Assembly (NCBI GenBank): GCA_016926735.1
Contig: JAFGOA010000228.1
Coordinates: 1-17,601 of the forward strand
Reading direction: 5' to 3'
Length of the DNA: 17,601 nt
From: Promethearchaeota archaeon
GTDB taxonomy: Archaea > Asgardarchaeota > Lokiarchaeia > Sigyniarchaeales > SOKP01
Shown here: positions 1-15,767 of the stretch, piece after piece
Layout: each line of letters begins with the position of its first letter
Position numbering within the stretch: the first letter of the stretch is position 1
Notes under the pieces: generated by a model
Told to the model about the DNA's origin: nothing
The model's database searches: none
The model's input: the letters and a program-made list of their open reading frames with translations, nothing else
Translations under genes and position numbers: made by a program

Positions 1-186
1 ATTATCTATTTCGGTAGCACTTATAAATCCATCTGGTCCAGCAGTGATTTGTTGTATATTAACTATATTGGAATCAAAGGTAAAATTTAAGCCATATGCC
101 GCTATTCTCTGATCTCCTGAATTGATATATACGTGAGTAGTGAATCTATCACCTACAATCTTATCCTCTACACCATCTATTCTTAT
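1..186 (-). other. N-terminal part of a cohesin-like domain within the large C25 protein
   Basis: Translation IRIDGVEDKIVGDRFTTHVYINSGDQRIAAYGLNFTFDSNIVNIQQITAGPDGFISATEIDN fits the cohesin pattern (VG-x-x-F-x-x-x-V-x-I/V-N ... A-x-x-x-x-x-Y/F-D-x-x-x-L/V). Only ~60 residues are visible. Confidence 0.68.
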
Positions 187-3100
187 ACATCCGGGTAAAT
201 CTATAATTGGATTAGAATTAATATGAATATTATTACTCTCATTCAGTTCAATCACTTGATTATTCTTATCAATAATACATTTTAATTCATACTTTCCAAA
301 AGGTATGGTAATATTCCCATAACAACATGCAGTATATATATTAATTATGTCTCCATCTAATAAAGTTAAATCATTTACTCCTCCTAAATAATAAATATTA
401 TCACCTTCAAATATATAAAAGTCAACAGGAATTTTTATTCCAAATAAGGATAATCCAGAATTAAAAATATATGATGATAAATTATAAGAGAAACTGATTT
501 CTCCTTCTTCTTCCATGATAAGATTAGTTAATTTATAATCAATGAAATCTACAACCTCAAAATCTGGAGCACAATCATCAGGTGAAAATTCAATAAGATC
601 ATCACAAAAATAAAGATTATTATTCTTATTTGATTCTGGTAATAAAGTAGTGGGATCCACCAAAAAATGCAATTGATATGTATCAAATGGTAAGGAAAAA
701 TACTCCTTAATGTGAATATTCTTTACTTCATTCTGGTCTAATCCATCAATATAATAATCTCCAAGGAAGTAAAGGCGGTGATCACTCATACTTCTTAAGT
801 AATATTCAACACTAAATGTTTTAGTAGTTTTCAATCCATAATTTTTAACATTAAATGATATATCATAAAAAAAATCTATCAGATTTTCTCCTGTCCAAGA
901 ATCCTTAAATATGCTTAGAGGAATTGTTGTAATGTCAATATCATTGTATATTGTTAAATCTGGTAATAATATATCATTTGAGACCACTAAAGGATAAGAA
1001 TCATTATAAATATTATTATTTTCATCTTTTTCTTCCACGTTTGCATCATTATCTACAGAACAAATTATCTCATATTCTCCAAATGGTAAAGTAATTGTTC
1101 CACTACAATTTGTAGTTATTTGATTAATTGGATCTAAACTCTCTATATAATATTCTCCTAGCGGATAAACAGAATTACCATTTTTGGCAATATATTGAAC
1201 CCAGAAACCTTTATTAGTTACTAAAAGACCTTTATTTATGATATCAGAAGATATTTCATAAGAAAATGTAATTTCATTATCTCCCAAGATTATATTGCTT
1301 TTTGTAATTTCGATATCACCCGAAGTAATATCTGGATAGAAATTATCAGGCTCAAGTATGAGGGGATTAGGATCAAATAAGTAATTATTTCCTTCCTCTG
1401 ACTCATATACATCATCATTTATATCTACATAATGAAATATCTGATATTCTCCTAAAGGTACCGTAATTGTATCAGGACTATTATAAATCACAGGTTTATA
1501 TTCATTAGGATTCAGTTCATTTGTATGATATGGTAGTCCAAGATAATACATTCCATTATCTCCCCACAAACCAAAACGACTATCGAATCCTCCTGCACTT
1601 TTTCCTCCTATATTCGTAATCCCTGATCTTAAATTATAATTAAATGTTACATTTCCATCATCCAAAACTTCAATATTACTTAAACCTATATTAATATTAT
1701 CATCTCTAACTAAATCTGGTGGGGTCAAATCCTGCGTAATTTCAACGCTAGGATCTCCAAAAAGATTAAGAGACAGATAGATATACTTCCATGCATTAAA
1801 TTTTTCTTGTTTCAACCATAATGCATCATCTAAGGTTAAAGCATCATTTTTTGCATCCTGTAAAGCCCAACCAATCTTATTTAAACCTTCTCTGAATATA
1901 GCATCATAAAATTGACGTAAATAATTTTCATTTGGACCCTCACCATAAGTCAAATATAACCCTAATCCAATATTACCAATCATAGCAAATGCTCCATTGT
2001 TAGAATTCATACACTGTTCTCCGAGTGTATTTCCCAGATGAAAAGCGAAAATTTCACACGCGGTAGTATACATAAAAAAATTCTTTGTATTTCTAAGAGA
2101 ACCAATCTCTGGAATAGTCATTTTCATCAGTTTATCATGACCATGTGCCACATTATTTATTATATGTATTCCATGTTCACCAGTAAGTTTTGAGATAAGA
2201 TCACTTTTATCCCAATTATGTTCAGAATAATCATCTCGATCATATAGTTTGTCTATACTATAATACGGGTCAAATTGTTTTGTGCTATAATGAGAAGAAT
2301 CACAATAACCAGAAGTTTTTTCATTATAAATTAGATAATCTAGGTCATCACCACCAAAATTAATTTCATCTAAGCGTTGACCTACATTCAAAACACTGTA
2401 TAAATAAAAATCATCATTATTCTCACTCAATTCTTGTTCATGAAGAAGTGTTTTTCTCAAAAAATTTGAGAGTTGATTTGTTGTACTAACAGGAGCTCTT
2501 CCAACAGCAATTTGTATCTTGTTACCAATAGAAAGATATTGATCCCAATCTTTTTCTTCACCATAAATTCCATCAAAATCTTCATCCCAATAACAATCTA
2601 AAGAAGCATAATACTGATCTGAGGGAAATGGTCGTTTATAATCATAATGATAATTCTCGTTTATAAGTGGGCTTTGAAATTCTCTCATAGGAATAATACT
2701 GTCATCTCCACATAGAAGAATATATCTTGTACCCCATAAACCATAAGCATCTTGTATAAATGCTCTTATTTTTCCTGGATCATCCTCCCAATATTCATAT
2801 TCATCTCTTATTTCTTCTAAGGTTACAATTTTAGGATAATAACCTTGAATTGTTTTAAAATCTATAAAATCTTGTAAGGTATAATATTCATGAGAATTTT
2901 TCAATGCTTCATTTGTAATAATAACATAATTATATAGTCCATGATCATCAAATATACTCTGTTCTTTTGGCTTAATTGATGCCATTGGATCTCCAAAAAG
3001 TGTTGTAGTACAAAGAATCCTTTTATCCCAATTTGAACCATAAGTTGCAGTATATCGTCTTAAAAGTTCTTCTTTAGCATCTTGTAGTGCTCTACCAATT

Positions 3101-4506
3101 TCATTTATCCCTTCTTGAAAGATAGCATCATAAAATTCACGACCTATCATCTGATTTGGATCATTTGTAAGATCACTACGTGCTCCTGTTCTTGGACCAA
3201 CACCTATATCTCCAATTGCAGCAAATGCTCCATAAGTAGAAGTTATCAGTTCTTCTCCAATAGAATCATATGTAAAATGAATATAATTTGTATTACTATA
3301 ATAATTTTGATCAATTTCATCTGCAAAATAAAAAGCATTGCCTTGATAAGAATAGAGAAAAAAACATTTTTGATTTCTAAAAGAAGCTACATCCTGAAAA
3401 TCTAGTTCCATTAATTTATTATGATTAATTAGTGCTGCCTCCTCAAGTGGAATTAATTCATTTACTACTCCACCTGGAGCGACTACCTCAAATGGAAGTC
3501 CATGGTAATTTAATATATGTACACCATGTTCACTCTCAATAAAATTCATCAATGGATAATTGGTCCAACTCTCGATAATGATATTTGGAGGGTAATACCC
3601 ACTGGTATCTCGTTCATAAAGAGTCTCAAAGTGATAAGTATCAGGAATCTTCTTTGTTTGGTAATCATGAGCATGACAATACTCATTTGAATCACACATG
3701 TATAATTGATCTAAACAATCAGCACCAAAAAAAAGATTTGGAGGATCTTCCCAATCAATTCCCTCAAATTCTCCTGCCATCAAACCGCTATATAAATATT
3801 CAACATCTGATTTATGTTTAAGTTCATATTCATGAGCAAGTGTTTTCCTCACAAAATTATTAACTTCTGATGTTGAACCGACAGGAGCTCTCCCAACATA
3901 AACATCTCCAAGGTTTCCACTGTTCAATATCAAATTCCAATCACTTTCTTCACCATAAATCCTATTCAAATTTCCATCCCAATTAATATGTATTGCTGAA
4001 TAATATAGATCAGTGTAAAAGGCATAAGGATCTTGAGGACCTGGAATCCAATCTGGTAGATCAACTCCATTACAAAAATATCTTGGAGGAATAATATTTG
4101 AATCTCCTCCTAAAAGAACATATCTGGTCTCCCATCTATTATATGCATCTACGATAAAATTGCGTATTTTTTCCGCATTGTCTCTCCCACCATAATTATT
4201 ATAAATATCCTCAACAGTTACTATGGTTCCATATATTCCTTTTTGAAGTTTATTATCAATTAGATCTTCAAATTTATAAGCAGTATTAGGATTTATAAAT
4301 GCTTTACATGTAATAATAACATATAGATAAGATTCATCATTATGAACAATTGCTGATGATTTTGGTTCCTCATCTAAATACAATATAGGTTCAGAATCAT
4401 TTTCTTTATAAATTCCACTATTTTGTTTATTTATAGAATTTGTTGTTATCAAAAAAATGACTATAAATAAAATTGTATAAATGGATTTCTTACTATTTTT
4501 TTTCAT
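1..4506 (-). CDS. Large secreted multidomain protein, 3' end outside the window: signal peptide + two C25 (gingipain-like) peptidase domains + 4 CARDB domains + cohesin-like domain
   Basis: Manual translation from ATG at 4506 finds no stop down to base 1 (1502 codons). N-terminus MKKNSKKSIYTILFIVIFLITT is signal-like. C25 domain 1 (~2986-4329) has YVIIT, AEKIRNFIVDAY, YVLLGGD, TDLYYS, VGRAPV, GAFAAIG and LFGDP. C25 domain 2 (~1750-2934) has YVIIT, YILLCGDD, SDQYYA, VGRAPV, INNVAHG, YTTAC and NLFGDP. Four CARDB-like units (~1381-1722, ~1000-1338, ~610-966, ~222-570) each start PDL/PDI/PDF and end D...E..E/K.NN. The cohesin-like segment covers 1-186. Confidence 0.93.
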   Translation of the reverse strand, partial: MKKNSKKSIYTILFIVIFLITTNSINKQNSGIYKENDSEPILYLDEEPKSSAIVHNDESYLYVIITCKAFINPNTAYKFEDLIDNKLQKGIYGTIVTVEDIYNNYGGRDNAEKIRNFIVDAYNRWETRYVLLGGDSNIIPPRYFCNGVDLPDWIPGPQDPYAFYTDLYYSAIHINWDGNLNRIYGEESDWNLILNSGNLGDVYVGRAPVGSTSEVNNFVRKTLAHEYELKHKSDVEYLYSGLMAGEFEGIDWEDPPNLFFGADCLDQLYMCDSNEYCHAHDYQTKKIPDTYHFETLYERDTSGYYPPNIIIESWTNYPLMNFIESEHGVHILNYHGLPFEVVAPGGVVNELIPLEEAALINHNKLMELDFQDVASFRNQKCFFLYSYQGNAFYFADEIDQNYYSNTNYIHFTYDSIGEELITSTYGAFAAIGDIGVGPRTGARSDLTNDPNQMIGREFYDAIFQEGINEIGRALQDAKEELLRRYTATYGSNWDKRILCTTTLFGDPMASIKPKEQSIFDDHGLYNYVIITNEALKNSHEYYTLQDFIDFKTIQGYYPKIVTLEEIRDEYEYWEDDPGKIRAFIQDAYGLWGTRYILLCGDDSIIPMREFQSPLINENYHYDYKRPFPSDQYYASLDCYWDEDFDGIYGEEKDWDQYLSIGNKIQIAVGRAPVSTTNQLSNFLRKTLLHEQELSENNDDFYLYSVLNVGQRLDEINFGGDDLDYLIYNEKTSGYCDSSHYSTKQFDPYYSIDKLYDRDDYSEHNWDKSDLISKLTGEHGIHIINNVAHGHDKLMKMTIPEIGSLRNTKNFFMYTTACEIFAFHLGNTLGEQCMNSNNGAFAMIGNIGLGLYLTYGEGPNENYLRQFYDAIFREGLNKIGWALQDAKNDALTLDDALWLKQEKFNAWKYIYLSLNLFGDPSVEITQDLTPPDLVRDDNINIGLSNIEVLDDGNVTFNYNLRSGITNIGGKSAGGFDSRFGLWGDNGMYYLGLPYHTNELNPNEYKPVIYNSPDTITVPLGEYQIFHYVDINDDVYESEEGNNYLFDPNPLILEPDNFYPDITSGDIEITKSNIILGDNEITFSYEISSDIINKGLLVTNKGFWVQYIAKNGNSVYPLGEYYIESLDPINQITTNCSGTITLPFGEYEIICSVDNDANVEEKDENNNIYNDSYPLVVSNDILLPDLTIYNDIDITTIPLSIFKDSWTGENLIDFFYDISFNVKNYGLKTTKTFSVEYYLRSMSDHRLYFLGDYYIDGLDQNEVKNIHIKEYFSLPFDTYQLHFLVDPTTLLPESNKNNNLYFCDDLIEFSPDDCAPDFEVVDFIDYKLTNLIMEEEGEISFSYNLSSYIFNSGLSLFGIKIPVDFYIFEGDNIYYLGGVNDLTLLDGDIINIYTACCYGNITIPFGKYELKCIIDKNNQVIELNESNNIHINSNPIIDLPGCIRIDGVEDKIVGDRFTTHVYINSGDQRIAAYGLNFTFDSNIVNIQQITAGPDGFISATEIDN

Positions 4507-4629
4507 AACTAAACATTGTTTCCCTAATTAATTATTAAAATATAGACATATTTAAAAAGAATCTGGTATTTAATTTTGTTAAAAATTCTTTAGTAGATTT
4601 AAGTGAAAGCTAAGAGTTTAGTATACGAA

Positions 4630-4815
4630 AATGATCAATGATTTCTATAATATTTAAATTCTCCTGACTTGAATCAGATGAAGTGGTTTTGGAAATTTTT
4701 GCGTAGACGGGTAACCCATGATATATTTTTTAATTGCCATAAAAAATTCTAGAGTACTATTACGAAATTTATTAGAAAAGTCAAAAAACCATCTATTGAA
4801 ATTCAAACACAATAG
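4630..4815 (+). mobile_element. Degenerate C-terminal relic of an IS630-family (DDE) transposase
   Basis: Frame +1 from 4660 reads SPDLNQMKWFWKFLRRRVTHDIFFNCHKKF*STITKFIRKVKKPSIEIQTQ*. This matches the IS630 motif YSPDLNPIE.xWK.L+..V.HN..F. The catalytic Glu position is Lys (AAG, 4681-4683), and there are in-frame stops at 4750-4752 and upstream. No terminal inverted repeats were recognised. Confidence 0.75.
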
Positions 4816-4967
4816 CACAATGATATTCCATCCCCAATGGGATATAATTGATTTTAATTTGGTCCTTTGATATAATGCTATCGAAATTAACTAAAATTAT
4901 AATTGAAGTAAATAAAAGAGGCAAAATAATAAAAAAGGATTTAAAGTATTCTATTAATAATCCAATT

Positions 4968-5636
4968 CTATAAATTTGAACCACAATGTTCACAAAATTG
5001 TGCAGATTTCTTTACTTTCTTGCCACAACTACTGCAAAATTTCATATCTTCTGATGGAGGTTCTTGTGAACTTCCTATTGGAACATTAAAAATACTAGAA
5101 TCTTTATTTTGGCCTTTAGGTAATCTTTTTGCTGAATCATCTCTAAAATATATAAATATACGCCAATTAGAGGCAGAAGGAGGATTTTTAGGGATAATAT
5201 TTTGTGGTAAAGTGAATTTAAATGGATATTCTTTTTTTTCATTTGAATTAATCTCATCATTATCTTTGATCTCAACAATTTTGAGACGTTCGTAACGTGG
5301 CATATAACCTCCAGACATTTGAGGTGTTTCTGCTCCTGCACTTGATCGAAATCCTCCAGAAGACATCTCGACTCCTGGACTTGGTCGAAATCTTCCAGGA
5401 GAAACCTCTGTTCCACGCATAGTAGATCCTGAAGCTGAAGGTCCTGATGGTCCTGACGGTCCTGAAGACCTAACCACAAATGTTTCATATGTTTCAATTA
5501 TCTGTGCTTGAATTTTTTTTATTTTCTTTGTTTTTTTCTCTTGAGATGTAATATACATAATCCCTTCAATTTCATCTCCAGGATTATATGCTGTTTTTTG
5601 ATTTATAATTTTATATTCAAATAATAATTTAACCAT
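4968..5636 (-). CDS. Arrestin-N/Spo0M-like beta-sandwich protein with a low-complexity insert and C-terminal zinc ribbon
   Basis: 222 aa ORF. YNPGDEIEG...KIKKIQAQI and EKKEYPFKFTLP resemble the arrestin-N/Spo0M fold. The C-terminus FCSSCGKKVKKSAQFCEHCGSNL is a CxxC...CxxC zinc ribbon. A purine-rich GAGGA lies just upstream of the ATG. Confidence 0.7.
   Translation of the reverse strand: MVKLLFEYKIINQKTAYNPGDEIEGIMYITSQEKKTKKIKKIQAQIIETYETFVVRSSGPSGPSGPSASGSTMRGTEVSPGRFRPSPGVEMSSGGFRSSAGAETPQMSGGYMPRYERLKIVEIKDNDEINSNEKKEYPFKFTLPQNIIPKNPPSASNWRIFIYFRDDSAKRLPKGQNKDSSIFNVPIGSSQEPPSEDMKFCSSCGKKVKKSAQFCEHCGSNL
5329..5406. repeat. Imperfect 39-bp tandem duplication (2 copies, 31/39 identical) inside the arrestin-like gene
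   Basis: 5329-5367 vs 5368-5406; encodes EVSPGRFRPSPGV / EMSSGGFRSSAGA. Confidence 0.85.
5440..5466. repeat. 9-bp tandem repeat (GGTCCTGAN x3) encoding SGP repeats
   Basis: ggtcctgat ggtcctgac ggtcctgaa; the protein reads SSGPSGPSGPS. Confidence 0.9.
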
Positions 5637-6018
5637 ATTCTAATTCCTCTTTTTTGAGAATAAATAATAATTTATTATTTAATTTAAATAGTTTATTCTA
5701 ATCCAGAAATGAATATTTTATATTATAAGAATAAATTTACTTAATGTCCTGTATTAAAGAGGATATTAGTCGATTTTATAAAATTTAAAATTCTAATAAG
5801 AAATATAATTTATTTTATGCAATGATATTTAAAAACAGAAATTTTCATTTTTCTTATTGATAATTATTAAGATTTTTTTATTAGAAAGTAATCTTATCAA
5901 TAGAAATTATTCGTGAATGATTTTAATTACTAAATTTAATTTATTATTGGAAAGAAATCTATAGCCTTCTTTAAGAAAAGTATCAATAGCATCGTTAAAA
6001 TACAAATATTTTAATATA

Positions 6019-6118
6019 TTATACATCTAAAAAGAGCCAGTGTATATTCATCTTGATATAAAATATGTGAACTATGAGAATTTTCAAAATGACAGATAAT
6101 ACATTCTGATTTTTTTAT
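6019..6118 (-). pseudogene. Probable 5' remnant of a HIT-family (histidine triad) hydrolase gene
   Basis: Minus strand reads (ATA)KKSECIICHFENSHSSHILYQDEYTLA, then FLDV* after a 1-nt frameshift. This resembles the HIT N-terminus CIFCKI...S.I.YEDE..LAFLDI. No ATG and no HxHxH motif remain. Confidence 0.4.
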
Positions 6119-6162
6119 AGAAAAATTAAAGAATTTATGTATATTAATGTATGTAGATAATC

Positions 6163-6783
6163 TTGATAATAAATACTGTTATTTCATATCTATCTTCAAT
6201 CTTAAAAACGTTAGGATATAGAAAAACAAAAAATAATTTCTGGAAACACCAAAATGAATTTTATAATCTTATAAACTTTCAAAAAGGGGCTTATGGGGAT
6301 TATTTTTTTATCAATATCGGAATTCATCCTATCGGGCTACCTTTACTTACCGAACTTGAAGATTTTCTCCCAGAAAAGCCAAAAGAATATGAATGTTTGA
6401 TCAGAACTCGAATAGAGAACCTTCTTCAGGATTATTCACACAAAATTCTTGATAAAGGATTCATGTGTTATGATATCACAATAAAAGAATGGGAAGATTT
6501 CCTTGAAATGGTGTTTCCAACGGACGTTCACAATTGGATAACTGAATTTAGTTCTTTTACGAAGCTTATTAGTATGAGCCAAGTCGAAATGGAGCGATTA
6601 ATGCCTTATGCACCTATTGTTAAAGAAAAAATATATTTTATGACACGGTTCTATTGTTTTTACAAATTAAATAAGATTAATGAAGCTCAAATAGCATTAG
6701 AAAAATATAATGAGATCAATCTTTCAGAATTTAATTTTTCTAGAGTTGATATCTATTTAAACAATCTAATCAATAATGATTAG
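6163..6783 (+). CDS. DUF4304-like hypothetical protein
   Basis: 206 aa ORF with TTG start (start position uncertain). LKTLGYRKTKNNFWK...LINFQKG.YG..FFINIGI matches the DUF4304 pattern. Confidence 0.7.
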   Translation: MIINTVISYLSSILKTLGYRKTKNNFWKHQNEFYNLINFQKGAYGDYFFINIGIHPIGLPLLTELEDFLPEKPKEYECLIRTRIENLLQDYSHKILDKGFMCYDITIKEWEDFLEMVFPTDVHNWITEFSSFTKLISMSQVEMERLMPYAPIVKEKIYFMTRFYCFYKLNKINEAQIALEKYNEINLSEFNFSRVDIYLNNLINND

Positions 6784-6959
6784 AATAGATTTTTAAAAAG
6801 TAAATTAATTATTTACTCAAATATATCTAAAGTTTCTAAAATTATTGTTAATAGAAAAAAAAAATATATATTTTTATTATAAAAAAAAAAAACTTTTTAG
6901 TTAATTTTATCTCCACTTTTTTTCATAAACTATAAATTATTTTTATTTATTAAAATATT

Positions 6960-8339
6960 ATGGCGTTAAGTAGTACAGATTCAGAAGTGAATATTGATGA
7001 TCTAAATAAATATAAATCTGTTGGAAAACGATTTTTTCAGATAGATGTTATGAAAACAGTATGCATTATATGTGTAATTGCGGCCCATACTTTCGGTCAA
7101 TTTCATGTATATGATAATTTATGGATATTTATTCAACCGGTAACCTTATTTATGATAATATTGGGTTTTAACTATGGTAATTCTTTCAAGAAAAAGAATT
7201 ATCATAAGCTAAGTGAAATGTATAGTTTTCAATATTTTAAAGGAATATTTTGGAGATTGATTTTTCCGTTACTATTGATTAATCTCATTAGCTATTTTAT
7301 AGATCTATTTTTTTTTAGTACTACAGGGTATTATATTAATGGATGGAGTATGACTCAATTACAACCAGTAAGTTGGGGCCCAACCAATATTCCTGGATAT
7401 GCAAATACAAATATATTTTATTTTCTTCTTGGAACACCATATTTTGCTGGTCCAGGTGATTTTTATATAGTTATGCTAGTACAATTCATTTTTATCTTTC
7501 CGTTAATCTATAAATTGTTTGATATACATCCTATTTTAGGTTTAGTAACATGTTGTGCAATAGAATTAAGTTTACAATTGATAGTTCCTAATATTCCTCC
7601 TGTTGTAGGATTCTTTAATGATTATTTCTTTTTAACTTATGCAAATATCTTAAGATATATGTCTGCAATTGGATTGGGACTATGGTTTATAAATAACCAT
7701 AATTTGTTTTCCAAGAAAAATGTTTTTATTATAGTTATGGTAATTCCTGCTTTTTTTATTTTAGTAATGGGATACTGGGGGGATATACTTGCTCCAAATT
7801 TGTTAGATAATAATATAATGCAAACAATCTTTTTTAAATCTGGAGATGGCTATGCATTAAAGATTTTCAGTGCATTTGGTTGGTGGGAAATGAACAACTT
7901 ATTTACATACTTTTGGCCAGCCTTCGTTTTTCTTCTGCTTATGAAAGTATTACCATCCAATCTAAATAAGGAAAAACCAAGATCCGAATCTGTATCAAGG
8001 TTTTTTGAAAAATATAGTAAACTGACATATCATATTCTATTAGTTCAAATTGTTTATTTCTTTATAAATATTCCTATCGCATGGGGGATAAGCATAACAA
8101 TTAATAATGCCTTCTATAATGGATTTATATTACCAATAACAGAACCATATGGAATATCAGCTTCATGGATGGATCATAGTATTTTAAGCCTCAAAACCTC
8201 TATAGCTGTAGGTCTATTAGAATTATTTGTAATATTTATAAATTGTGCAGTCGTTTTTACCTTGGCAATTTGGTTTAGAAAAGTAGATTTAGGTATTCAA
8301 AAGAATTTAAAAAAACTCGGAAAAAAAATCAAAAAATAA
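6960..8339 (+). CDS. Acyltransferase family 3 (OafA/YrhL-like) polytopic membrane O-acyltransferase
   Basis: 459 aa with many hydrophobic helices. RFFQIDVMKTVCIICVIAAH matches the R..ID..+...I..V...H motif. Also has VTLFMIILGF, FWRLIFP, FYIVMLVQF..IFPL and TYHILLVQ. Confidence 0.85.
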   Translation: MALSSTDSEVNIDDLNKYKSVGKRFFQIDVMKTVCIICVIAAHTFGQFHVYDNLWIFIQPVTLFMIILGFNYGNSFKKKNYHKLSEMYSFQYFKGIFWRLIFPLLLINLISYFIDLFFFSTTGYYINGWSMTQLQPVSWGPTNIPGYANTNIFYFLLGTPYFAGPGDFYIVMLVQFIFIFPLIYKLFDIHPILGLVTCCAIELSLQLIVPNIPPVVGFFNDYFFLTYANILRYMSAIGLGLWFINNHNLFSKKNVFIIVMVIPAFFILVMGYWGDILAPNLLDNNIMQTIFFKSGDGYALKIFSAFGWWEMNNLFTYFWPAFVFLLLMKVLPSNLNKEKPRSESVSRFFEKYSKLTYHILLVQIVYFFINIPIAWGISITINNAFYNGFILPITEPYGISASWMDHSILSLKTSIAVGLLELFVIFINCAVVFTLAIWFRKVDLGIQKNLKKLGKKIKK

Positions 8340-8517
8340 GAATTGTCAGAATTTCTTTTTTCTATTTTTTTTAATTCGTGAAAGATTCATATTACAAAAT
8401 AAATATTTTGATATTTATTACAAAGAAAGCATTAAATATCGAGATACCAATATTCAATCGTTTCCTATATGAATTTAAATATCAAATATTCATTATCTTA
8501 ATAGTTGATGATGAAAT

Positions 8518-9006
8518 ATGGTAAAAGTAAAGAATCCTGATTTAATTCAAAAGGAAATAACTCAAGGTTCCTATGAAAGAAAACGTTTTTTTTCAATTGT
8601 TGCTCATATGGACCACGGTAAAACTACGCCCTCTGATTATTTGCTTAGAAGAGCTGGGTTAATGAGACCTGAAGATGCTGAACATCTTCAAATGATAGAT
8701 TCAGATGAAGAACAAGCTCATGGGATTACTATATTCACTTCTGTAGTTTTATTATCATTTAAAGATCCTAGAGATCCAGATGGAGAAGAATATATATTTC
8801 AAATTAATGACACTCCTGGTCACATTTCCTTTACAGGAGAAGTATCTCGTGCATTAAGAGGTTCAGATGGTGTAATTATAATTATTGATGCTTTAGAAGG
8901 ACTTATGACTCAAACGGAAACTAATATTCGTCTTTCTGTAGGAGAAGAACTTTGTAAACCCGTTTTATTTATTAATAAAATAGATAGGTTAATAAGTGAA
9001 TCATAG
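8518..9006 (+). pseudogene. fusA: Truncated, degenerate elongation factor EF-2 (N-terminal G domain only)
   Basis: Has G1 AHMDHGKTT, switch I HGITI (canonical RGITI), G3 DTPGH and G4 NKID. It stops (TAG) at aa 162, whereas EF-2 is over 700 aa. No EF-2-like continuation was found downstream. A Pro follows GKTT directly, which suggests decay. Confidence 0.88.
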
Positions 9007-9164
9007 GTTCTTCTTTTAATAGTTTCTATATTGTTTATCGAAAGCAATAATAAATGAGTATGATTTTTCATAAAATAGAAAAAATTATTTGAATCATTGA
9101 TTATGCCTATTGAATCATTTTTTCTTTCAATCAAATAATTTTCATATCTTCTTATAATTGTATT

Positions 9165-9467
9165 ATGATATTAGCAATGGATACATACATATATGAATGT
9201 ATCGTTACAGATCAAATTGATCAATCAGACTCAGATATAGTTATAGTAACAGTTACACACGCAACGCAATGGCAATTAGGTGATGTGAATCATGATGAAA
9301 CTATTGATATTATTGATACTCTTATGATCGCTCAACGCTATGTTGGACTTGATCCTCAACCATTTTATCCTGAAGAGGCTGATGTGGACGGTAGTGGAGC
9401 TATTGATATTGTTGATGCATTGATGGTTGCTCAGGCATATGTAGGTTTAACTAAGTTACCACCTTAG
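9165..9467 (+). pseudogene. Orphan Ig-tail + dockerin cassette, a paralog of the xylanase 3' end; probably a gene fragment
   Basis: 100 aa with two Ca-binding dockerin repeats, GDVNHDETIDIIDTLMIAQRYVG and ADVDGSGAIDIVDALMVAQAYVG. It begins in the middle of an Ig domain and has no signal peptide. Confidence 0.8.
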
Positions 9468-9530
9468 TAAAAAAGTAACTGAAAAAATTCATAAAATAGC
9501 AAATATAATCTTTTTTTTCTTTTTATATAA
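9170..9530 (+). repeat. Direct repeat of 12102-~12468 (xylanase 3' end and 3' UTR)
   Basis: 9170-9219 is identical to 12102-12151 (50 bp). There are 7 mismatches over 9170-9317, then ~70% identity over the next 129 nt (hand count). Both copies are followed by AAAATAGCAA, a T-run and TATATAAA. Confidence 0.92.
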
Positions 9531-9642
9531 ATATATGTCTATTCCTTTTGGTAAATATTAGAAATCTTATAAGGACGACCATATTTGTTCAATCTTTTAT
9601 AATCTAACTTTTAACCTGTTTTACAAATACTTTTTTCCATTT

Positions 9643-9679
9643 CTACTTCCTCATAGGAGAAGTAGGAAAACTTTAAATA
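9643..9679 (+). promoter_or_regulatory. Candidate archaeal promoter of the xylanase (inverted repeat + BRE + TATA)
   Basis: CTACTTC-N9-GAAGTAG inverted repeat (9643-9665), directly followed by GAAAAC and TTTAAATA (9672-9679). Confidence 0.45.
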
Positions 9680-9739
9680 TTATTCTCTTAGTTACAAATC
9701 ATAATATAACAATTTTTTTCTCAATTTAAAAATAAATAC

Positions 9740-9771
9740 TAAGAAATTAGCCTTAATAGAATAATTTCTTA
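9740..9771. promoter_or_regulatory. Perfect 10-bp inverted repeat upstream of the xylanase start (operator or 5'-UTR hairpin)
   Basis: TAAGAAATTA-N12-TAATTTCTTA. Confidence 0.35.
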
Positions 9772-9804
9772 AGATAAAAATCAAAAATAAAAAAAGTTAT
9801 TAAA

Positions 9805-12405
9805 ATGATGATTAAAAAAAAAAATAATAAGAATTCAATAGCTCTTTCAATACTCATAATTTGCTCCTTATTGATTAGTATATTACCTTTATTTATCACT
9901 AACGTTACTGCTCAAGTAGATTGGAGAACAGAAGCACAGTATAATATTGATACTTATCGTAAAAGTGATTTGACAATTCATGTGTCTAATAGTCAAGGAA
10001 ATCCAATATCAGGAGCAACAGTTCAAGTAGAAATGCAAAAACATCAATTTATTCTTGGTACTGCTATAGCTTTAGACGTTTTTCAAAGTAATCAACAATA
10101 TAGAGATAAAATGTTGGATCTTGATGGCCAAGGACATGGTTTTACAGGAGGAGTAATGGAAAATGCTATGAAATGGCAATACTTTAATGGAGCTGGTTCT
10201 GCTGATGTCATTTCATGGTGTAAGCAAAATGGTATGGAATTTAGAGGACATAATTTAATATGGCCTGCTTTTCAAACGTTACCCAGTGATATTGAATCAA
10301 ATCAAAATAATCCTGATTACGTACGTCAGCGTATGGATGAGCATGTCGCGGAAGCTGCTGGATGGTCTGGAATAAGAGGTGAAGTGAGAGATTGGGATGT
10401 TATTAATGAACCCGTTCATTGTACAGACATTAGAGATATTTTTCAAGGAAGTTCTTCTCAATATCCAACAGGTGAAGAAATCTATCCTGAAATATTCCAA
10501 TGGGCAGCTCAAGCAGACCCTAATGCTAAACTATATTATAATGAATATAACATTGTCAGTGGTGGATATTCAAATACAGGAACTCACAATGAGTATAAAA
10601 AATTGATTCAAGATATAAATAACAGAGGACTTTTAGATGGTATCGGCATTCAAGGTCATATGGGAACCTCTAGGACTTCCCCACAAGATGTTATGAGCAT
10701 ATTAAATGATTTTGCACAATTTGATAAAGAAATGCTAATTAGTGAATATGATTGCGCTGGACTCTCAGGAACTGAAGAATATGATTTTACAAGAGACTTT
10801 TTAACCGTAGTATTTGCTCAACCACTAATGCGATCATTCTATGTATGGGGTTTTTGGGATGGAAGACATTGGTTAGATGATGCTGCCTTCTTTACACAAG
10901 ATTGGAGTTTAAAACCAGCAGGACAGGCTATAATCGATCTTATGTTCAATGAATGGTGGACAGATGTATCTGGTACAACAAATAGTAATGGAGATTATAC
11001 TGTTCCGGATGGTGCGTTTAATGGTGAATATAAAATTACCGTATCTCAAGCTGGTCAGACTATAGAAGAAACATTTAATCTTGCTCAAGATATGACTGTT
11101 AATGTTGTTTTACCCGTTGGTCCAGTAGATCCAGATCCACCTAGTACTCCAACAGGTTTAAGTGCATCCGCTATAAGCTCATCACAAATCAATCTTGATT
11201 GGAATGACAATACTGAATCTGATTTAGCAAATTATAGAGTATATCGTAGTACTAGTGCTACCGGTACATATAGTTATATAGGACAAACAAGTTCCAGCTC
11301 ATATTCAAGTACAGGCTTAAGTTCGGAGAGCACTTATTATTATAGAGTAAGTGCAGTTGATACCAGTGGTAATGAAAGTCCACAGTCAAGTTATGCAGGT
11401 GCCACCACGCTTCCAGGTGGAGGAACAGCTACATTAAAAGCTCAATATAGAAGTGCAAATACTGCAACCACTACACAAGATATAAGAGCTCAAATACAAA
11501 TTCTTAATGATGGATCTGAGAATGTCGCACTAAATGATATAACTGTTAGATATTGGTTTACTTCTGAACCTGCTCTTAATGATCTTACCTATTCATGCGA
11601 TTATGCTGCTGTTGGATCTTCAGGAATTACAAGTTCATTTGGAACAGCTGGTGATTCTGATTATTTAGAAATTGGATTTACATCTTCAGCCACAGTTCCA
11701 ACATGGTTAGGTGGAGATGGTTCCAGCAACTCCCTCCCTATAGGAGCAAATACTGGAGATATTCAAAATAGAATTGGACGAAATTCTAATGTTGATTTTA
11801 TCCAGTCCAATGATCACTCCTTTGATGCTTCTATGTCAGATTATACAGATAATTCCCAGATTACAGTTTATTATCAAAATAATTTAGTATGGGGTGTTGA
11901 ACCCCCAAATGGTCCAATTAATAATCCTCCATCTATAAGTAGCCCAGCAGATATTACATATATTATAGGAGATACTGGATTTTCTATTGATTGGACTGCA
12001 ATTGATGAAGATCCAGCAACATATATAATTACTCGGAATGGTTCTCAAATAGATTCAGGTACATGGAGTCCAAATTTTCCAATTAGTATCAATATTGATG
12101 GATTAGCAATGGATACATACATATATGAATGTATCGTTACAGATCAAATTGGTCAATCAAATTCAGATTTAGTTGTAGTAACAGTTACACACGCAGCGCA
12201 ATGGCAATTAGGTGATGTAAATCATGATGAAACTATTGATATTATTGATGCACTTTTAGTAGCTCAATATTATGTTGGTGAAGATCCTCAACCATTTTAT
12301 TCTGAACAAGCTGATGTGAATGAAGATGGTGCAATTAATATAGTTGATGCACTTTTAATTTCTCAATATTATGTTGGACAAATTCCATCATTACCACCAT
12401 CTTGA
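9805..12405 (+). CDS. Secreted modular endo-1,4-beta-xylanase: GH10 + FN3 + CBM3 + Ig-like + dockerin
   Basis: Signal peptide (KKKNNK + hydrophobic stretch + VTA|Q). GH10 motifs ENAMKW, RGHNLIWP, WDVINEP (acid/base Glu), LYYNEYN, GIGIQGH, ISEYD (nucleophile Glu) and WGFWD. FN3 (PPSTPTGLSA...YYYRVSAVDTSGNES, ~11137-11410). CBM3 (LKAQY...QILNDG...ITVRYWFT...YLEIGF...LVWGVEP, ~11431-11905). Ig-like (~11921-12190). Dockerin (GDVNHDETIDIIDALLVAQYYVG / ADVNEDGAINIVDALLISQYYVG, ~12208-12400). Confidence 0.95.
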   Translation: MMIKKKNNKNSIALSILIICSLLISILPLFITNVTAQVDWRTEAQYNIDTYRKSDLTIHVSNSQGNPISGATVQVEMQKHQFILGTAIALDVFQSNQQYRDKMLDLDGQGHGFTGGVMENAMKWQYFNGAGSADVISWCKQNGMEFRGHNLIWPAFQTLPSDIESNQNNPDYVRQRMDEHVAEAAGWSGIRGEVRDWDVINEPVHCTDIRDIFQGSSSQYPTGEEIYPEIFQWAAQADPNAKLYYNEYNIVSGGYSNTGTHNEYKKLIQDINNRGLLDGIGIQGHMGTSRTSPQDVMSILNDFAQFDKEMLISEYDCAGLSGTEEYDFTRDFLTVVFAQPLMRSFYVWGFWDGRHWLDDAAFFTQDWSLKPAGQAIIDLMFNEWWTDVSGTTNSNGDYTVPDGAFNGEYKITVSQAGQTIEETFNLAQDMTVNVVLPVGPVDPDPPSTPTGLSASAISSSQINLDWNDNTESDLANYRVYRSTSATGTYSYIGQTSSSSYSSTGLSSESTYYYRVSAVDTSGNESPQSSYAGATTLPGGGTATLKAQYRSANTATTTQDIRAQIQILNDGSENVALNDITVRYWFTSEPALNDLTYSCDYAAVGSSGITSSFGTAGDSDYLEIGFTSSATVPTWLGGDGSSNSLPIGANTGDIQNRIGRNSNVDFIQSNDHSFDASMSDYTDNSQITVYYQNNLVWGVEPPNGPINNPPSISSPADITYIIGDTGFSIDWTAIDEDPATYIITRNGSQIDSGTWSPNFPISINIDGLAMDTYIYECIVTDQIGQSNSDLVVVTVTHAAQWQLGDVNHDETIDIIDALLVAQYYVGEDPQPFYSEQADVNEDGAINIVDALLISQYYVGQIPSLPPS

Positions 12406-12440
12406 AACTAAGAATTAAAATAAAATCCAAAAAATAGCAA

Positions 12441-12456
12441 TTTTCTCTTTTTTTTT
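12441..12456 (+). terminator. Oligo-T tract after the xylanase, a likely archaeal intrinsic terminator
   Basis: TTTTCTC followed by a T9 run ~35 nt after the stop. A similar tract follows the orphan dockerin (9511-9524). Confidence 0.4.
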
Positions 12457-12529
12457 ATATTATATAAAATAGAAAAAAAATTTAAATATCAATATAAACC
12501 ATCTAACCATAATTTAGAATTACTATGTA

Positions 12530-12709
12530 TTGGCGTTAAAAATAGTCGGATGTCATGATGTAAAAGTTGGAGATATATTAGAATGTCCCGATTGTGGTTT
12601 ACAATTAGAAGTTAAATCTGAATGCAAAGAATGTGGTACTGAAACTTCATGTGGTTGTGCTGAAGATTGTGATTTCTCATGTTGTGGGACATTATTAGTT
12701 AAAAAATAG
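12530..12709 (+). CDS. Small Cys-rich metal-binding protein (desulforedoxin-like core with a Cys-rich insert)
   Basis: Not in the ORF track. From TTG it reads MALKIVGCHDVKVGDILECPDCGLQLEVKSECKECGTETSCGCAEDCDFSCCGTLLVKK* (59 aa, 10 Cys). Upstream is an A-rich BRE + TTTAAATA (12481-12488) and downstream are T-tracts. The start codon is uncertain. Confidence 0.8.
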   Translation: MALKIVGCHDVKVGDILECPDCGLQLEVKSECKECGTETSCGCAEDCDFSCCGTLLVKK

Positions 12710-12807
12710 GATTTTACCATTTTTTATATTCTTTTTTTTTATGTTTTATTAATTGTTTTAAAGAAGATATTCTATAGTGTTATATCTTAAAATTATCTAA
12801 AAAAATA

Positions 12808-13362
12808 TTAATCTAAACTTATAATAAATCGACAAACATTCCCTCCACTAACTATAGCCTCAAGTAATTTAGCTTTAATAGGTTTGTCTAAGAGTGCACT
12901 AAATAAGCTTGTAATCCATCCCAATGAACAATTGCAGTAGGTCTTCGATATTGGTTCCTTTGATTCTCCTACTCCCATATGACAATAACATTTGTTATAT
13001 ATTGCTTAAATTTTATTATTTTTTAAAGTAAAGAGTTCTGCTCCTAAGGTTTTATTAAGATTTTTTATTATTTCTTCAGTACTTTTCGTATTATTTTTTA
13101 TTTGCTCTACTTTATCAGCGAAAGAGTTATTAAAACATTTTTCTCCCAATGTATTCATAACTTTATGTCTTTTTTCTTTTTCAGGTACTATCTTATCAAA
13201 ATCATCCATAATTCCTTTTATACATTTAGAAATCCCTTCATTATTTGAAAGATTACCACATGATTCACAATTGGATAAAAGATCCTTTTTTATCTTAATT
13301 CCAAGTTGTTGAGTAATGATATCTCCAAAATTCTTTATCCAATTCTCTTTTGAATTATTCAT
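12808..13362 (-). pseudogene. DUF6144/V4R-like Cys-containing protein interrupted by a single in-frame TAA
   Basis: The 118 aa ORF ends at TAA 13006-13008. The same frame continues AIYNKCYCHMGVGESKEPISKTYCNCSLGWITSLFSALLDKPIKAKLLEAIVSGGNVCRFIISLD* to 12808, which supplies the family's CxC, YCxCSxGW and GxxxCxFxI motifs. Confidence 0.85.
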
Positions 13363-13382
13363 TATATTTTTTCAGAATTTTA

Positions 13383-13469
13383 TTATCTATTAATAATTTC
13401 CTGTAATTTTTTAAGTGTTTCTTTCCTCATTCCCGGTTTGTAAGTAATAAATTCTCCATTATAGATAAC
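13383..13469 (-). pseudogene. Possible 3' remnant of a YoaP-domain (GNAT-associated) gene
   Basis: Minus strand reads VIYNGEFITYKPGMRKETLKKLQEIINR*, ending 20 bp before the DUF6144-like start. YNGEFIT resembles the YoaP C-terminus. There is no upstream start codon. Confidence 0.3.
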
Positions 13470-13719
13470 AGTTATTAGATTATTTAAGTCAAGAAAATAA
13501 TGAAAATATTAATTTATGGATCAGACAATGTGTACAAAGATTCTTAGAAAGAGATATTGAAGAAGCTGAGATTTTTGATGAAGAATTCTTTATAAGATAA
13601 TAAATTAAATATTTAAAAAATATATATTTTTTTTCATGGAAATCACAAGTGAAAGATTAATTTCACGTGCAAAATATCATGTCCTGATATATATTAAGAA
13701 AATATAAGAATTTTTAATT

Positions 13720-14277
13720 TTAACTTTTATTCTCATAAATTTTGATGAATTCATGGGGTATATAATCCGCAAGATATATTTCACCTGATTTATAAAATTT
13801 AATACCAGCCCTTTTAGCATTATCAACATCTATAGATAAAATAATTGGATTTCTTGTTCTTCTTTTCCCTATATTTATTGCAGTATCGATATCTCCTGAG
13901 AGATGAACATATTGACGTTTTTTTTTCTTAAGGCCTTCTTTTTTAATTGATAAGTAGGCTTTTTCTGATGTTCCATGGAAGAGTATATTAGGAGGATTTA
14001 AAACTTCAAGTACTTCAATTGTTGCTTCTATACTATGACCATAAATTGCACGTATTTTATTCTCTTTTATTTCAAATCTTCTTTTATCAGATATATCATT
14101 GATATTTTCTATATAATCTCTTGTAATATCTATATTTTTATATTGATTATTTAAAATTGTTAGTATATCTTGAAGATTTGCATAACCCTCTGTATCTAGT
14201 TTAATATCAAATTTCTCAGGATGATGCCTAAGGATATAAGATATTGTTTTAGATATACTTATTTCTGTTTTGTTCAT
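13720..14277 (-). CDS. kptA: RNA 2'-phosphotransferase (Tpt1/KptA family)
   Basis: SKTISYILRH, DKRRFE, IRAIYGHS, LFHGT, RQYVHLS and GKRR motifs; 185 aa. Confidence 0.96.
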   Translation of the reverse strand: MNKTEISISKTISYILRHHPEKFDIKLDTEGYANLQDILTILNNQYKNIDITRDYIENINDISDKRRFEIKENKIRAIYGHSIEATIEVLEVLNPPNILFHGTSEKAYLSIKKEGLKKKKRQYVHLSGDIDTAINIGKRRTRNPIILSIDVDNAKRAGIKFYKSGEIYLADYIPHEFIKIYENKS

Positions 14278-14313
14278 AGATTTAGTTTTTTTTATTGATA
14301 AAAAGTAATAATT

Positions 14314-15585: not shown

Positions 15586-15767
15586 TTTTAATGTCTCTAA
15601 ATCTTATAAAAATTAAAAATCTCAATAAATATAAATTGACTTTCTTAATATTAGAAATTTTAAAATTTTAACTATAAATAAAATTTGATAAATCTATCAA
15701 TACAGATACAACAAAGAAAAAAGTAAATAAAAAAGGAAGTTAAATATTTTTTTAATAGAAAATGTAT

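Follow-up and report, generated by a model that had tools for sequence, protein, structure and literature searches.

Does an archaeon build a cellulosome? The question is raised by contig JAFGOA010000228.1 of a Promethearchaeota archaeon (assembly GCA_016926735.1), which is 17,601 nucleotides (nt) long and is analysed here in its entirety as the window. The contig has a G+C content of 28.7% and encodes, on opposite strands, a xylanase that ends in a dockerin and a giant C25 peptidase that is cut off by the contig edge inside a cohesin-like segment. So far as is known, cellulosomes were invented by anaerobic bacteria; the analogue found in anaerobic fungi is unrelated. A study of dockerin- and cohesin-bearing proteins of anaerobic methanotrophic archaea states that large scaffoldins were believed to be missing from the archaeal versions, which are called non-cellulosomal (PMC9012536). 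A first-pass annotation of the contig proposed a cellulosome-like cohesin-dockerin system, and all three elements to which it pointed, the xylanase, a further dockerin open reading frame (ORF), and the start of a cohesin, sit where it had placed them. The best explanation of the contig is that a cellulosome-like surface system of an Asgard archaeon, built on cohesins and dockerins, is represented here by two of its parts, and we consider this explanation likely. It stands on the observed domain content, catalytic motifs, cohesin fold, architectures of orthologues, enzyme set of the lineage, and archaeal labels of the related proteins. Taken as a whole system, the reading as a cellulosome-like complex of an archaeon has good support.

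The xylanase and the C25 protein

The 866-residue xylanase is encoded at 9805–12405 of the forward strand. Its modules, as delineated with Pfam, follow one another in the order leader, glycoside hydrolase family 10 (GH10) domain, CarboxypepD_reg-like domain, FN3, CBM3, Ig/PKD-like X module, and dockerin. The N-terminal leader combines basic residues, a hydrophobic run, and a VTA/QV end, from which the enzyme is predicted to be secreted. At its other end the polypeptide finishes with the dockerin and has no C-terminal hydrophobic segment. The catalytic domain (nt 10042–10938, residues 80–378) matches Glyco_hydro_10 with an E value of 4.7e-44 over positions 8–310 of the 311-position profile. A comparison with the sequences of solved structures gave 108 matches at E ≤ 1e-10, the best of which is 7d88_A (E = 7.3e-35). 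In the alignment with 7d88_A, the motif WDVINEP, which includes Glu202 and is encoded from nt 10393, falls on WDVNNEM, and the motif LISEYD, which includes Glu314 and is encoded from nt 10735, falls on WVTEYD. Glu202 is the proposed acid/base and Glu314 the proposed nucleophile, in keeping with the roles of the two glutamates in GH10 enzymes. The nearly full-length profile match and the presence of both catalytic glutamate motifs place the domain in GH10.

The catalytic domain is followed by a CarboxypepD_reg-like beta-sandwich (residues 388–436; 22.9 bits, below the cut-off), and by FN3 and CBM3 modules at nt 11143–11673 (fn3, E = 9.4e-7, residues 447–528; CBM_3, E = 5.4e-16, residues 547–623). 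The subsequent Ig/PKD-like X module (nt 12007–12195) matches a K319L-like PKD profile at residues 754–794 with 22.1 bits, compared with a cut-off of 27. The description of the protein as a secreted GH10-FN3-CBM3-Ig-dockerin xylanase with intact catalytic glutamate motifs and without a C-terminal membrane anchor, as given in the first-pass annotation, is borne out by the Pfam matches and by the alignment with 7d88_A. Orthologues of the xylanase are 67–74% identical to it, and one of them is named Lokiarchaeota. The nearest GH10 domains outside this group are 40–46% identical, bear the names Rhodothermus, Lewinellaceae, or Saprospiraceae, and many of their proteins carry PF18962.

The dockerin of the xylanase (nt 12208–12369, residues 802–855; Dockerin_1, E = 1.8e-12, 47.7 bits) contains two complete 12-residue calcium-loop motifs, DVNHDETIDIID encoded from nt 12214 and DVNEDGAINIVD encoded from nt 12313, with aspartate or asparagine at positions 1, 3, 5, 9, and 12. 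It has 35 matches among the sequences of solved structures at E ≤ 1, the best of which is 2y3n_B (E = 1.3e-7), and the top scorers bear names of cellulosomal or cohesin-binding dockerin modules. The enzyme thus carries a dockerin with two calcium-binding loop-helix repeats, which, judged by its sequence, is of the canonical two-loop, type-I-like kind.

The giant protein, of which 1502 residues are encoded at 1–4506 of the reverse strand, has an open 3′ end at the contig edge, beyond which this assembly offers no further sequence. It matches the Pfam families Peptidase_C25 (E = 1.2e-87, two stretches) and CARDB (E = 7.2e-25, three stretches). The protein begins with an N-terminal hydrophobic segment, by which it is predicted to be secreted or anchored, and continues with two C25 domains, about four CARDB-like repeats, and the start of a cohesin. 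C25 domain 1 occupies nt 2962–4329 (approximately residues 60–515) and domain 2 nt 1741–2928 (residues 527–922), the latter being the best Pfam C25 stretch. The CARDB-like region (nt 217–1719, approximately residues 930–1430) comprises four units of about 120 residues in a layout read from the sequence. An alignment of both C25 domains from five proteins shows that the histidine and cysteine columns of domain 2 are invariant in all five. In the window protein they are His788 (in VAHGH) and Cys817 (in TTACE), which would be the catalytic dyad by the motifs of clan CD. Domain 2 is apparently active as a cysteine peptidase. By contrast, the cysteine column of domain 1 is occupied by glutamine in all five proteins (Gln388 in the window), and because of this replacement domain 1 is probably a non-catalytic, degenerate copy. 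Searches of solved structures by sequence returned no match for the whole C25 protein at E ≤ 0.01 or for domain 2 at E ≤ 10. An AlphaFold2 model of domain 2 computed from a four-row alignment was unusable, with a predicted local distance difference test (pLDDT) value of 41.3. A weak NCBIfam match connects the giant protein to the model of PorU-related sortases (43.8 bits, cut-off 450).

The first 63 residues of the cohesin (residues 1440–1502) are encoded at nt 1–189 of the reverse strand, and the Pfam match covers residues 1442–1492 on positions 4–54 of the 139-position Cohesin profile. The segment is called a cohesin because its orthologues score as Cohesin and because a model of an orthologue matches the cohesin fold. 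A search with residues 1250–1502 retrieved five proteins at E ≤ 0.001 among 1074 candidates, namely the window protein and four relatives. These C25-protein orthologues are 40–62% identical to the window protein, and two of the four bear the name Candidatus Lokiarchaeota archaeon. Three of them (P0002, 1758 residues; P0004, 2098 residues; P0005, 2025 residues) contain two C25 domains, CARDB repeats, two to three cohesins, and a C-terminal dockerin; the fourth, P0003, is partial. The Cohesin profile scores 27.8–57.4 bits in P0002–P0005, and an alignment of the 63 window residues with the complete cohesins of all four orthologues is free of gaps and covers the first half of these modules, with 70% identity to the first cohesin of P0003. 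The cohesin profile has no significant match among the sequences of solved structures (best 5lxv_A, E = 0.43). The best of five AlphaFold2 models of the P0003 cohesin has a pLDDT of 85.3 and a predicted template modelling (TM) score of 0.81, while the other four reach pLDDT values of 35–71. A Foldseek search with the best model found 181 matches in the PDB at E ≤ 0.001, and the matches listed down to rank 40, with TM scores of 0.58–0.76, are all cohesins. They include ScaC of Ruminococcus flavefaciens (E = 1.3e-8) and cohesins of Clostridium perfringens, Clostridium thermocellum, and Archaeoglobus fulgidus (2xdh, TM score 0.70). The cohesin-like end of the giant protein, as noticed in the first-pass annotation, thus finds its counterpart in the cohesins of the orthologues and, through the orthologue model, in solved cohesins. 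It was also checked whether the segment would fail to match or fold as a cohesin, and the orthologue alignment and the Foldseek matches speak to the contrary. Alignment and modelling together indicate that the segment encoded at nt 1–189 is the beginning of a genuine cohesin.

To judge from the orthologues, the part of the giant protein that is lost at the contig edge would include a dockerin and one or two additional cohesins. Since the orthologues have their own C-terminal dockerin after two to three cohesins, the C25 protein may be a docking adaptor or itself a cargo. The orthologue in a Promethearchaeota metagenome-assembled genome (MAG) is split in a similar way: one contig (L001) ends in the first cohesin, and another (L002) opens inside a cohesin and continues into a dockerin. 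P0003 stops, inside its second cohesin, at the residue identical to the last one of the window (…ATEIDN). The window segment shares 54 of 63 residues with this cut second cohesin of P0003 and 44 of 63 with the first, and the two proteins are about 54% identical there overall. Because the window, L001/L002, and P0003 all break inside cohesins, tandem cohesin repeats appear to break short-read assemblies. The coincidence of the window and P0003 suggests such repeat-driven breaks, and possibly repeat homogenization or strain mixing. At another locus (L003), a 1693-residue paralogue encoded at 11904–16985 of the forward strand lies beside a C25-CARDB-cohesin-dockerin orthologue. It has C25, CARDB, and dockerin domains and no cohesin, and could serve as a ligand of the neighbouring protein's cohesins.

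Related cohesin carriers and dockerin-bearing enzymes

The cohesin profile matches 558 proteins at E ≤ 1e-3 among 1.84 billion representatives. Within this family, the C25 orthologues carry two to three cohesins, P0248, P0250, and P0251 carry three to five, and P0244–P0247 carry six to ten. P0248, P0250, and P0251 consist of a leader and three to five cohesins that alternate with Ig modules, and P0250 additionally contains a GH5 domain. Their Ig modules are 45–52% identical to that of the xylanase. At the C-terminus, each of the three has the motif IPGYD, a hydrophobic helix, and the basic sequence RKRRQ. Among the best 150 of the 558 cohesin proteins, 12 end in a C-terminal helix and a basic tail, and eight of these have the PG[YN] form of the preceding motif. 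The NCBIfam model Loki-CTERM matches the extreme C-terminus of seven of the eight with 10.9–17.3 bits. P0252 and the proteins with six to ten cohesins (P0244–P0247) combine CBM3, a dockerin, and altogether 4–10 cohesins, and their matches are weaker, with approximately 70–95 bits per module.

Two further proteins, P0255 and P0271, contain 10 and 7 cohesin stretches according to Pfam, and 14 and 8 according to our own profile. Their ends resemble PGF-CTERM (23.2 and 20.4 bits, cut-off 24.5). The content of the residues N, I, K, Y, and F is about 13.5% in these two proteins, compared with 33–36% in the C25 proteins, which sets them apart from the AT-rich lineage. They suggest that large scaffoldin-like proteins may occur in other archaea too.

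A search of longer proteins with the Ig-dockerin tail of the xylanase gave 294 matches at E ≤ 1e-5, of which the best 29, and the 120 listed, are used in the following counts. Enzymes of plant cell-wall breakdown dominate the best 29: 13 carry GH9, seven GH48 (one of them together with GH5), three GH10, two GH5, and one PL14, and three are without a catalytic domain. The names of the catalytic domains were checked on nine proteins. Together with GH10 and CBM3 in the window, the 26 of the 29 relatives that have a GH9, GH48, GH10, GH5, or PL14 domain characterize the cargo as plant cell-wall enzymes. The name Candidatus Lokiarchaeota archaeon is attached to seven of the 29. The FN3-CBM3-Ig-dockerin tail of the xylanase recurs with 68% identity on the GH9 protein P0011.

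Groups of dockerin enzymes share the same value of longest contig: P0134, P0143, P0144, and P0011 (25354); P0127, P0141, and P0142 (20962); P0009 and P0136 (13241); and P0137 and P0140 (42274). On account of these shared values, the GH48, GH9, GH10, and PL14 dockerin genes are probably clustered in the relatives. In two enzymes, P0131 (GH9) and P0180 (GH5), the C-terminus is formed by one cohesin followed directly by a dockerin, and since each has both modules, enzymes of the lineage could form chains without a scaffoldin. Many similar dockerins of bacterial relatives, either named Spirochaetales or without a name, are N-terminal and follow the leader (positions ~22–95), whereas those of the archaeal-labelled enzymes are C-terminal.

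Host assignment and the other genes of the contig

The relationships of its genes assign the contig to a very AT-rich Asgard archaeon of the Promethearchaeota, of Lokiarchaeia type. Over 1512 alignment columns, the C25 protein shares 62% identity with a protein encoded in a genome titled Promethearchaeota archaeon, a GTDB representative, and C25 orthologues were found in two such representative genomes, this one and another titled uncultured archaeon (the third locus). The acyltransferase of the window is 44% identical to the product of a gene beside the 3′ end of the C25 orthologue in the Promethearchaeota MAG. Among the close relatives of the xylanase and of the C25 protein, those with a name are without exception Lokiarchaeota (one xylanase orthologue and two of the four C25-protein matches). 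A fragment of elongation factor 2 (EF-2) scores 136 bits with the archaeal aEF-2 model and 72 bits with EF-G. Compared with solved proteins, it reaches 115–125 bits with EF-2 of about 730 residues, which we presume to be archaeal, up to 100 bits with eEF2, and up to 64 bits with EF-G. The G+C content of third codon positions (GC3) is 0.156 in the xylanase gene, 0.152 in the C25 gene, and 0.12–0.15 in the genes of Tpt1, HMG-CoA reductase, and HMG-CoA synthase. Because GC3 is uniform across the genes, the overall G+C content of 35% of the xylanase gene reflects amino-acid content and not foreign codon usage. The closest relatives of the contig genes in Asgard-classified genomes, the archaeal type of the EF-2 fragment, and the uniform GC3 agree with the archaeal host that had been assumed in the first-pass annotation. 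The contig scanned for tRNA genes and against Rfam gave zero matches, and there are no rRNA, tRNA, or ribosomal-protein genes on its 17,601 nt, which is a caveat for the assignment.

The region 8518–9467 (forward strand) is read as a rearrangement scar with two gene remnants. The EF-2 fragment (8518–9006, 162 residues) corresponds to the N-terminal G-domain. It keeps AHMDHGKTT, DTPGH, and NKIDR, stops right after NKIDR, and is followed by nothing EF-2-like; it looks like a truncated paralogue or a pseudogene. The dockerin fragment begins 160 nt from it. The ORF at 9165–9467 (Dockerin_1, E = 3.9e-10) encodes the last ~30 residues of the Ig module and the dockerin, and has no leader. Nucleotides 9170–9445 are a direct repeat of 12102–12377 with 84% identity. 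The likeness to the 3′ end of the xylanase gene sets in abruptly midway through the Ig module. Upstream of the ORF, the frame closes at 9114, which is 51 nt before the ATG. Over 88 codons compared between the fragment and the xylanase tail, the ratio of nonsynonymous to synonymous substitution rates (dN/dS) amounts to 0.41, which alone is no proof of decay; it indicates that the copy probably diverged while it was part of a working paralogue. The ORF is probably a dead gene remnant. Its interpretation as a free-standing small dockerin protein was rejected because it lacks a leader, starts inside an Ig module, and lies beside a truncated gene. Of the second dockerin cassette proposed in the first-pass annotation, the dockerin itself is present, but it belongs to a truncated copy of the xylanase gene and not to a whole protein. 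A six-frame scan of the window with our own cohesin and dockerin profiles detected no additional cohesin or dockerin.

The window contains eleven ORFs of note. In addition to those described above, they are an arrestin-like protein with a zinc ribbon (4968–5636, reverse strand), a DUF4304 protein (6163–6783, forward), an Acyl_transf_3 membrane protein (6960–8339, forward), an ORF of 118 residues without a family (13006–13362, reverse), for which the Protein Atlas gave no usable match, Tpt1/KptA (13720–14277, reverse), HMG-CoA reductase (14314–15585, reverse), and, in the adjoining gene, HMG-CoA synthase of 541 residues (15768–17393, reverse). Solved structures and family models match approximately residues 10–420 of the HMG-CoA synthase, and its last ~120 residues form an extra tail rich in cysteine and histidine (CDEGC...CPKGH). 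The arrestin-like protein consists of an N-terminal part that matches Arrestin_C with 29.4 bits, a low-complexity middle of glycine, serine, and proline (SGPSGPSGPS), and the C-terminal zinc ribbon. Its nearest Protein Atlas clusters are archaeal, arrestin-N-like, and rich in Bathyarchaeota, with a score of 0.88 that is below 0.9 and provides a lead only. A zinc-ribbon protein is also encoded upstream of the C25 orthologue at L003, with a likeness to the arrestin-like protein that is limited to the ribbon. An Acyl_transf_3 gene is located near the C25 gene both in the window and in the Promethearchaeota MAG (L002, 906–2348, forward strand), on opposite sides, and its product may modify a surface glycan or the complex.

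Docking partners, alternatives, and implications

In the cellulosome-like system that we favour, the xylanase would be exported, its CBM3 would bind cellulose or the plant cell wall, and an Ig-like spacer would lead to a calcium-dependent dockerin at the end of the enzyme. Enzymes with Ig-dockerin tails (GH10, GH9, GH48, GH5, and PL14) would bind cohesins in the presence of Ca2+. The cohesins would be provided by carriers of two kinds, the C25-CARDB proteins and the (cohesin-Ig)n proteins with a Loki-CTERM-like membrane end. The C25 protein would plug into the complex through its own dockerin, and the outcome would be a cell-bound complex that holds glycanases and a protease. The fullest version of this proposal, in which a Lokiarchaeia-type lineage builds a genuine cell-anchored cellulosome with enzymes on (cohesin-Ig)n scaffoldins fixed by Loki-CTERM and with double-C25 adaptors in the same lattice, falls just short of an even chance in our estimate. 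The anchored (cohesin-Ig)n proteins appear to be at least as good receptors for the enzyme dockerins as the C25 protein. That the xylanase docks on them is a tentative assignment, with the odds somewhat against it; docking on the C25 protein, one of the receptors suggested in the first-pass annotation, is rather unlikely. A complex prediction for the C25-type cohesin of an orthologue, the xylanase dockerin, and two calcium ions scored 0.22 relative to a mark of 0.32, was made with no controls, and counts neither way.

Several observations weigh against the cellulosome-like system or parts of it. The cohesin in the window is only 63 residues long and scores 20.6 bits (E = 5.3e-4), below the Pfam cut-off of 24.1. 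The contig is without a scaffoldin or an anchor, the (cohesin-Ig)n proteins are without a taxon label, and all Loki-CTERM matches are below the cut-off of 19.9 bits. The xylanase and C25 genes are divergent and 5.3 kb apart; between them lie two gene fragments and four intact genes of unrelated function. The first dockerin helix reads DALQT or DALET in the C25-borne dockerins and DALLV or DALLI in the enzyme-borne ones, and the dockerin tails read FPAEL and SLPPS, respectively; the second helix is nearly alike in the two classes. The C25-borne cohesins are only ~45% identical to those of the anchored scaffoldins. Because both the dockerins and the cohesins of the C25 proteins differ from the enzyme-borne and anchored ones, there may be two specificity classes, and a two-tier arrangement like the split of bacterial type I and type II is plausible from these differences. 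Other observations concern the host. The HMG-CoA synthase looks bacterial in type, being nearest to TIGR01835 and to the solved 1tvz (155 bits, compared with 111 bits for 6esq), and the HMG-CoA reductase is of the class II/NAD type that is common in bacteria. Outside Lokiarchaeota, the nearest dockerins bear the name Spirochaetales (14 among the 120 listed matches); they are very similar to those of the Ig-dockerin tails, rank below the 29, and leave room for mis-binning of related contigs. Binding at every step, anchoring, and the pairing of the xylanase with the C25 protein are what we infer from this material.

The bacterial affinities give rise to the explanation that this contig, or the related contigs named Lokiarchaeota, are bacterial or chimeric, with genes of a co-occurring bacterium such as a spirochaete that were mis-binned or mis-assembled. 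The Spirochaetales dockerins, the Rhodothermus, Saprospiraceae, and Lewinellaceae types of the nearest outside GH10 domains, the types of the two HMG-CoA enzymes, and the patchwork at 8518–9467 would all fit it. However, GC3 stays within 0.12–0.16 over the xylanase, C25, and housekeeping genes, and the dockerin fragment is next to an EF-2 fragment of archaeal type. Moreover, the C25 orthologues are in GTDB representatives with archaeal titles, each close relative of the two key genes that bears a name is labelled Lokiarchaeota, and related cohesin proteins end in a Loki-CTERM-like signal. In addition, Asgard mevalonate enzymes, HMGR2 included, are reported to intermix with bacterial ones in trees (PMC11052028). 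A bacterial or chimeric origin is very improbable. A different alternative accepts the archaeal host and holds that cohesins and dockerins hang single proteins on the surface or on one another, with no organised multi-enzyme particle and no synergy on cellulose; such an arrangement has been proposed for the non-cellulosomal systems of archaea. In C. perfringens, glycosidases and toxins are joined into complexes by cohesin and dockerin without a scaffoldin. The enzymes P0131 and P0180, with one cohesin and one dockerin each, suit such enzyme-to-enzyme chains, and the C. perfringens cohesins 2jh2, 2vo8, and 2w1n are among the best fold matches of the cohesin model. The C25 orthologues hold only two to three cohesins, and the cohesin and dockerin proteins of A. 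fulgidus and anaerobic methanotrophic archaea (ANME) have no cellulolytic role according to PMC9012536. By contrast, the same cohesin family includes proteins with three to five cohesins and a candidate membrane anchor. The cargo of GH48, GH9, GH5, and GH10 enzymes with CBM3 is what we take to be the signature set of bacterial cellulosomes, and with these points on the other side, simple tethering is unlikely.

The alternative with more in its favour concerns the C25-CARDB-cohesin protein alone. Rather than a scaffold for glycanases, it could be an autonomous surface protease or sortase-like processing enzyme, the cohesins of which bind only dockerins of their own class to form sheets or chains, while the xylanase uses other receptors. 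The C25-class dockerins are indeed a distinct sequence subtype, the paralogue at L003 would be a natural ligand for C25-borne cohesins, and the sub-cut-off PorU-related match hints at a sortase. However, nothing excludes cross-binding between the classes, the second helix of the dockerin barely differs between them, and the C25 gene shares one 17.6-kb contig with a dockerin-bearing xylanase. We regard an autonomous C25 protein as possible, though doubtful. In the likeness to C25 gingipains and PorU-type sortases, the two Pfam C25 domains, the invariant histidine and cysteine of domain 2, and the weak PorU-related match stand on one side. On the other side are the glutamine in the cysteine column of domain 1, the lack of a sequence match to a solved structure, and the fusion of the C25 domains with CARDB repeats and cohesins, to which the orthologues add a dockerin.

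The cellulosome-like system shares its main components with the bacterial cellulosomes of Acetivibrio (Clostridium) thermocellus, with CipA, and R. flavefaciens, with its Sca proteins. These are enzyme dockerins with duplicated calcium loops, beta-sandwich cohesins, CBM3, a cargo of GH48, GH9, GH5, and GH10 enzymes, multi-cohesin proteins, and adaptors with cohesins and a dockerin. It differs from them in the Asgard archaeal host and in cohesins that are unmatched in sequence to solved ones and often near or below the Pfam cut-off, so that Pfam under-detects them, with 20.6–27.8 bits on true modules. The cohesins alternate with an Ig-like module that also precedes the enzyme dockerins, and among the cohesin carriers is a peptidase with two C25 domains and CARDB repeats. 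Furthermore, the candidate anchor here is a Loki-CTERM-like PGY motif with a transmembrane segment and a basic tail, instead of S-layer homology (SLH) modules or sortase. From the C. perfringens complexes, to which P0131 and P0180 and the fold matches link it, the system is distinguished by multi-cohesin proteins with predicted membrane anchors and by a dockerin of the type-I Pfam family. With the A. fulgidus and ANME proteins it has in common the archaeal host, the occurrence of cohesin and dockerin on one polypeptide, and the fold resemblance to 2xdh. The ANME proteins combine a dockerin with up to five cohesins, and their cargo, which includes substrate-binding proteins of ABC transporters, is non-cellulolytic according to PMC9012536, unlike the xylanase with CBM3 in the window and the full cellulase set in its relatives.

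In the literature outside subscription journals and supplementary tables, no description of an Asgard cellulosome or of an "archaeal cellulosome" was found, and no paper on Loki-CTERM was found outside subscription journals. In passages of related papers, the relevant terms are mentioned separately (PMC11573180), the word cellulosome is confined to the reference list (PMC8065059), and MAGs enriched in cohesins and dockerins are counted without a tie to Lokiarchaeota (10.1101/680553). In one Lokiarchaeota MAG, 94% of the carbohydrate-active enzymes are glycoside hydrolases, as reported in PMC8933973.

Cultured Lokiarchaeia ferment peptides and amino acids. They are described as syntrophic (PMC11316595). 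If the system is what it appears to be, it would be the first bacterial-type cohesin-dockerin cellulosome outside Bacteria and would extend the paradigm to a second domain of life. The genes would derive from bacteria and would have been supplied with an archaeal anchor. A complete apparatus of protein assembly would thus have passed between domains and received a protease adaptor and a membrane anchor specific to the lineage. Its very divergent cohesin-dockerin pairs are new and would be of use for designer-cellulosome work. As for the organisms themselves, cultured or enriched Lokiarchaeia would gain a role in the breakdown of polysaccharides that can be tested, and relatives of eukaryotes would be primary degraders of plant or algal cell walls.

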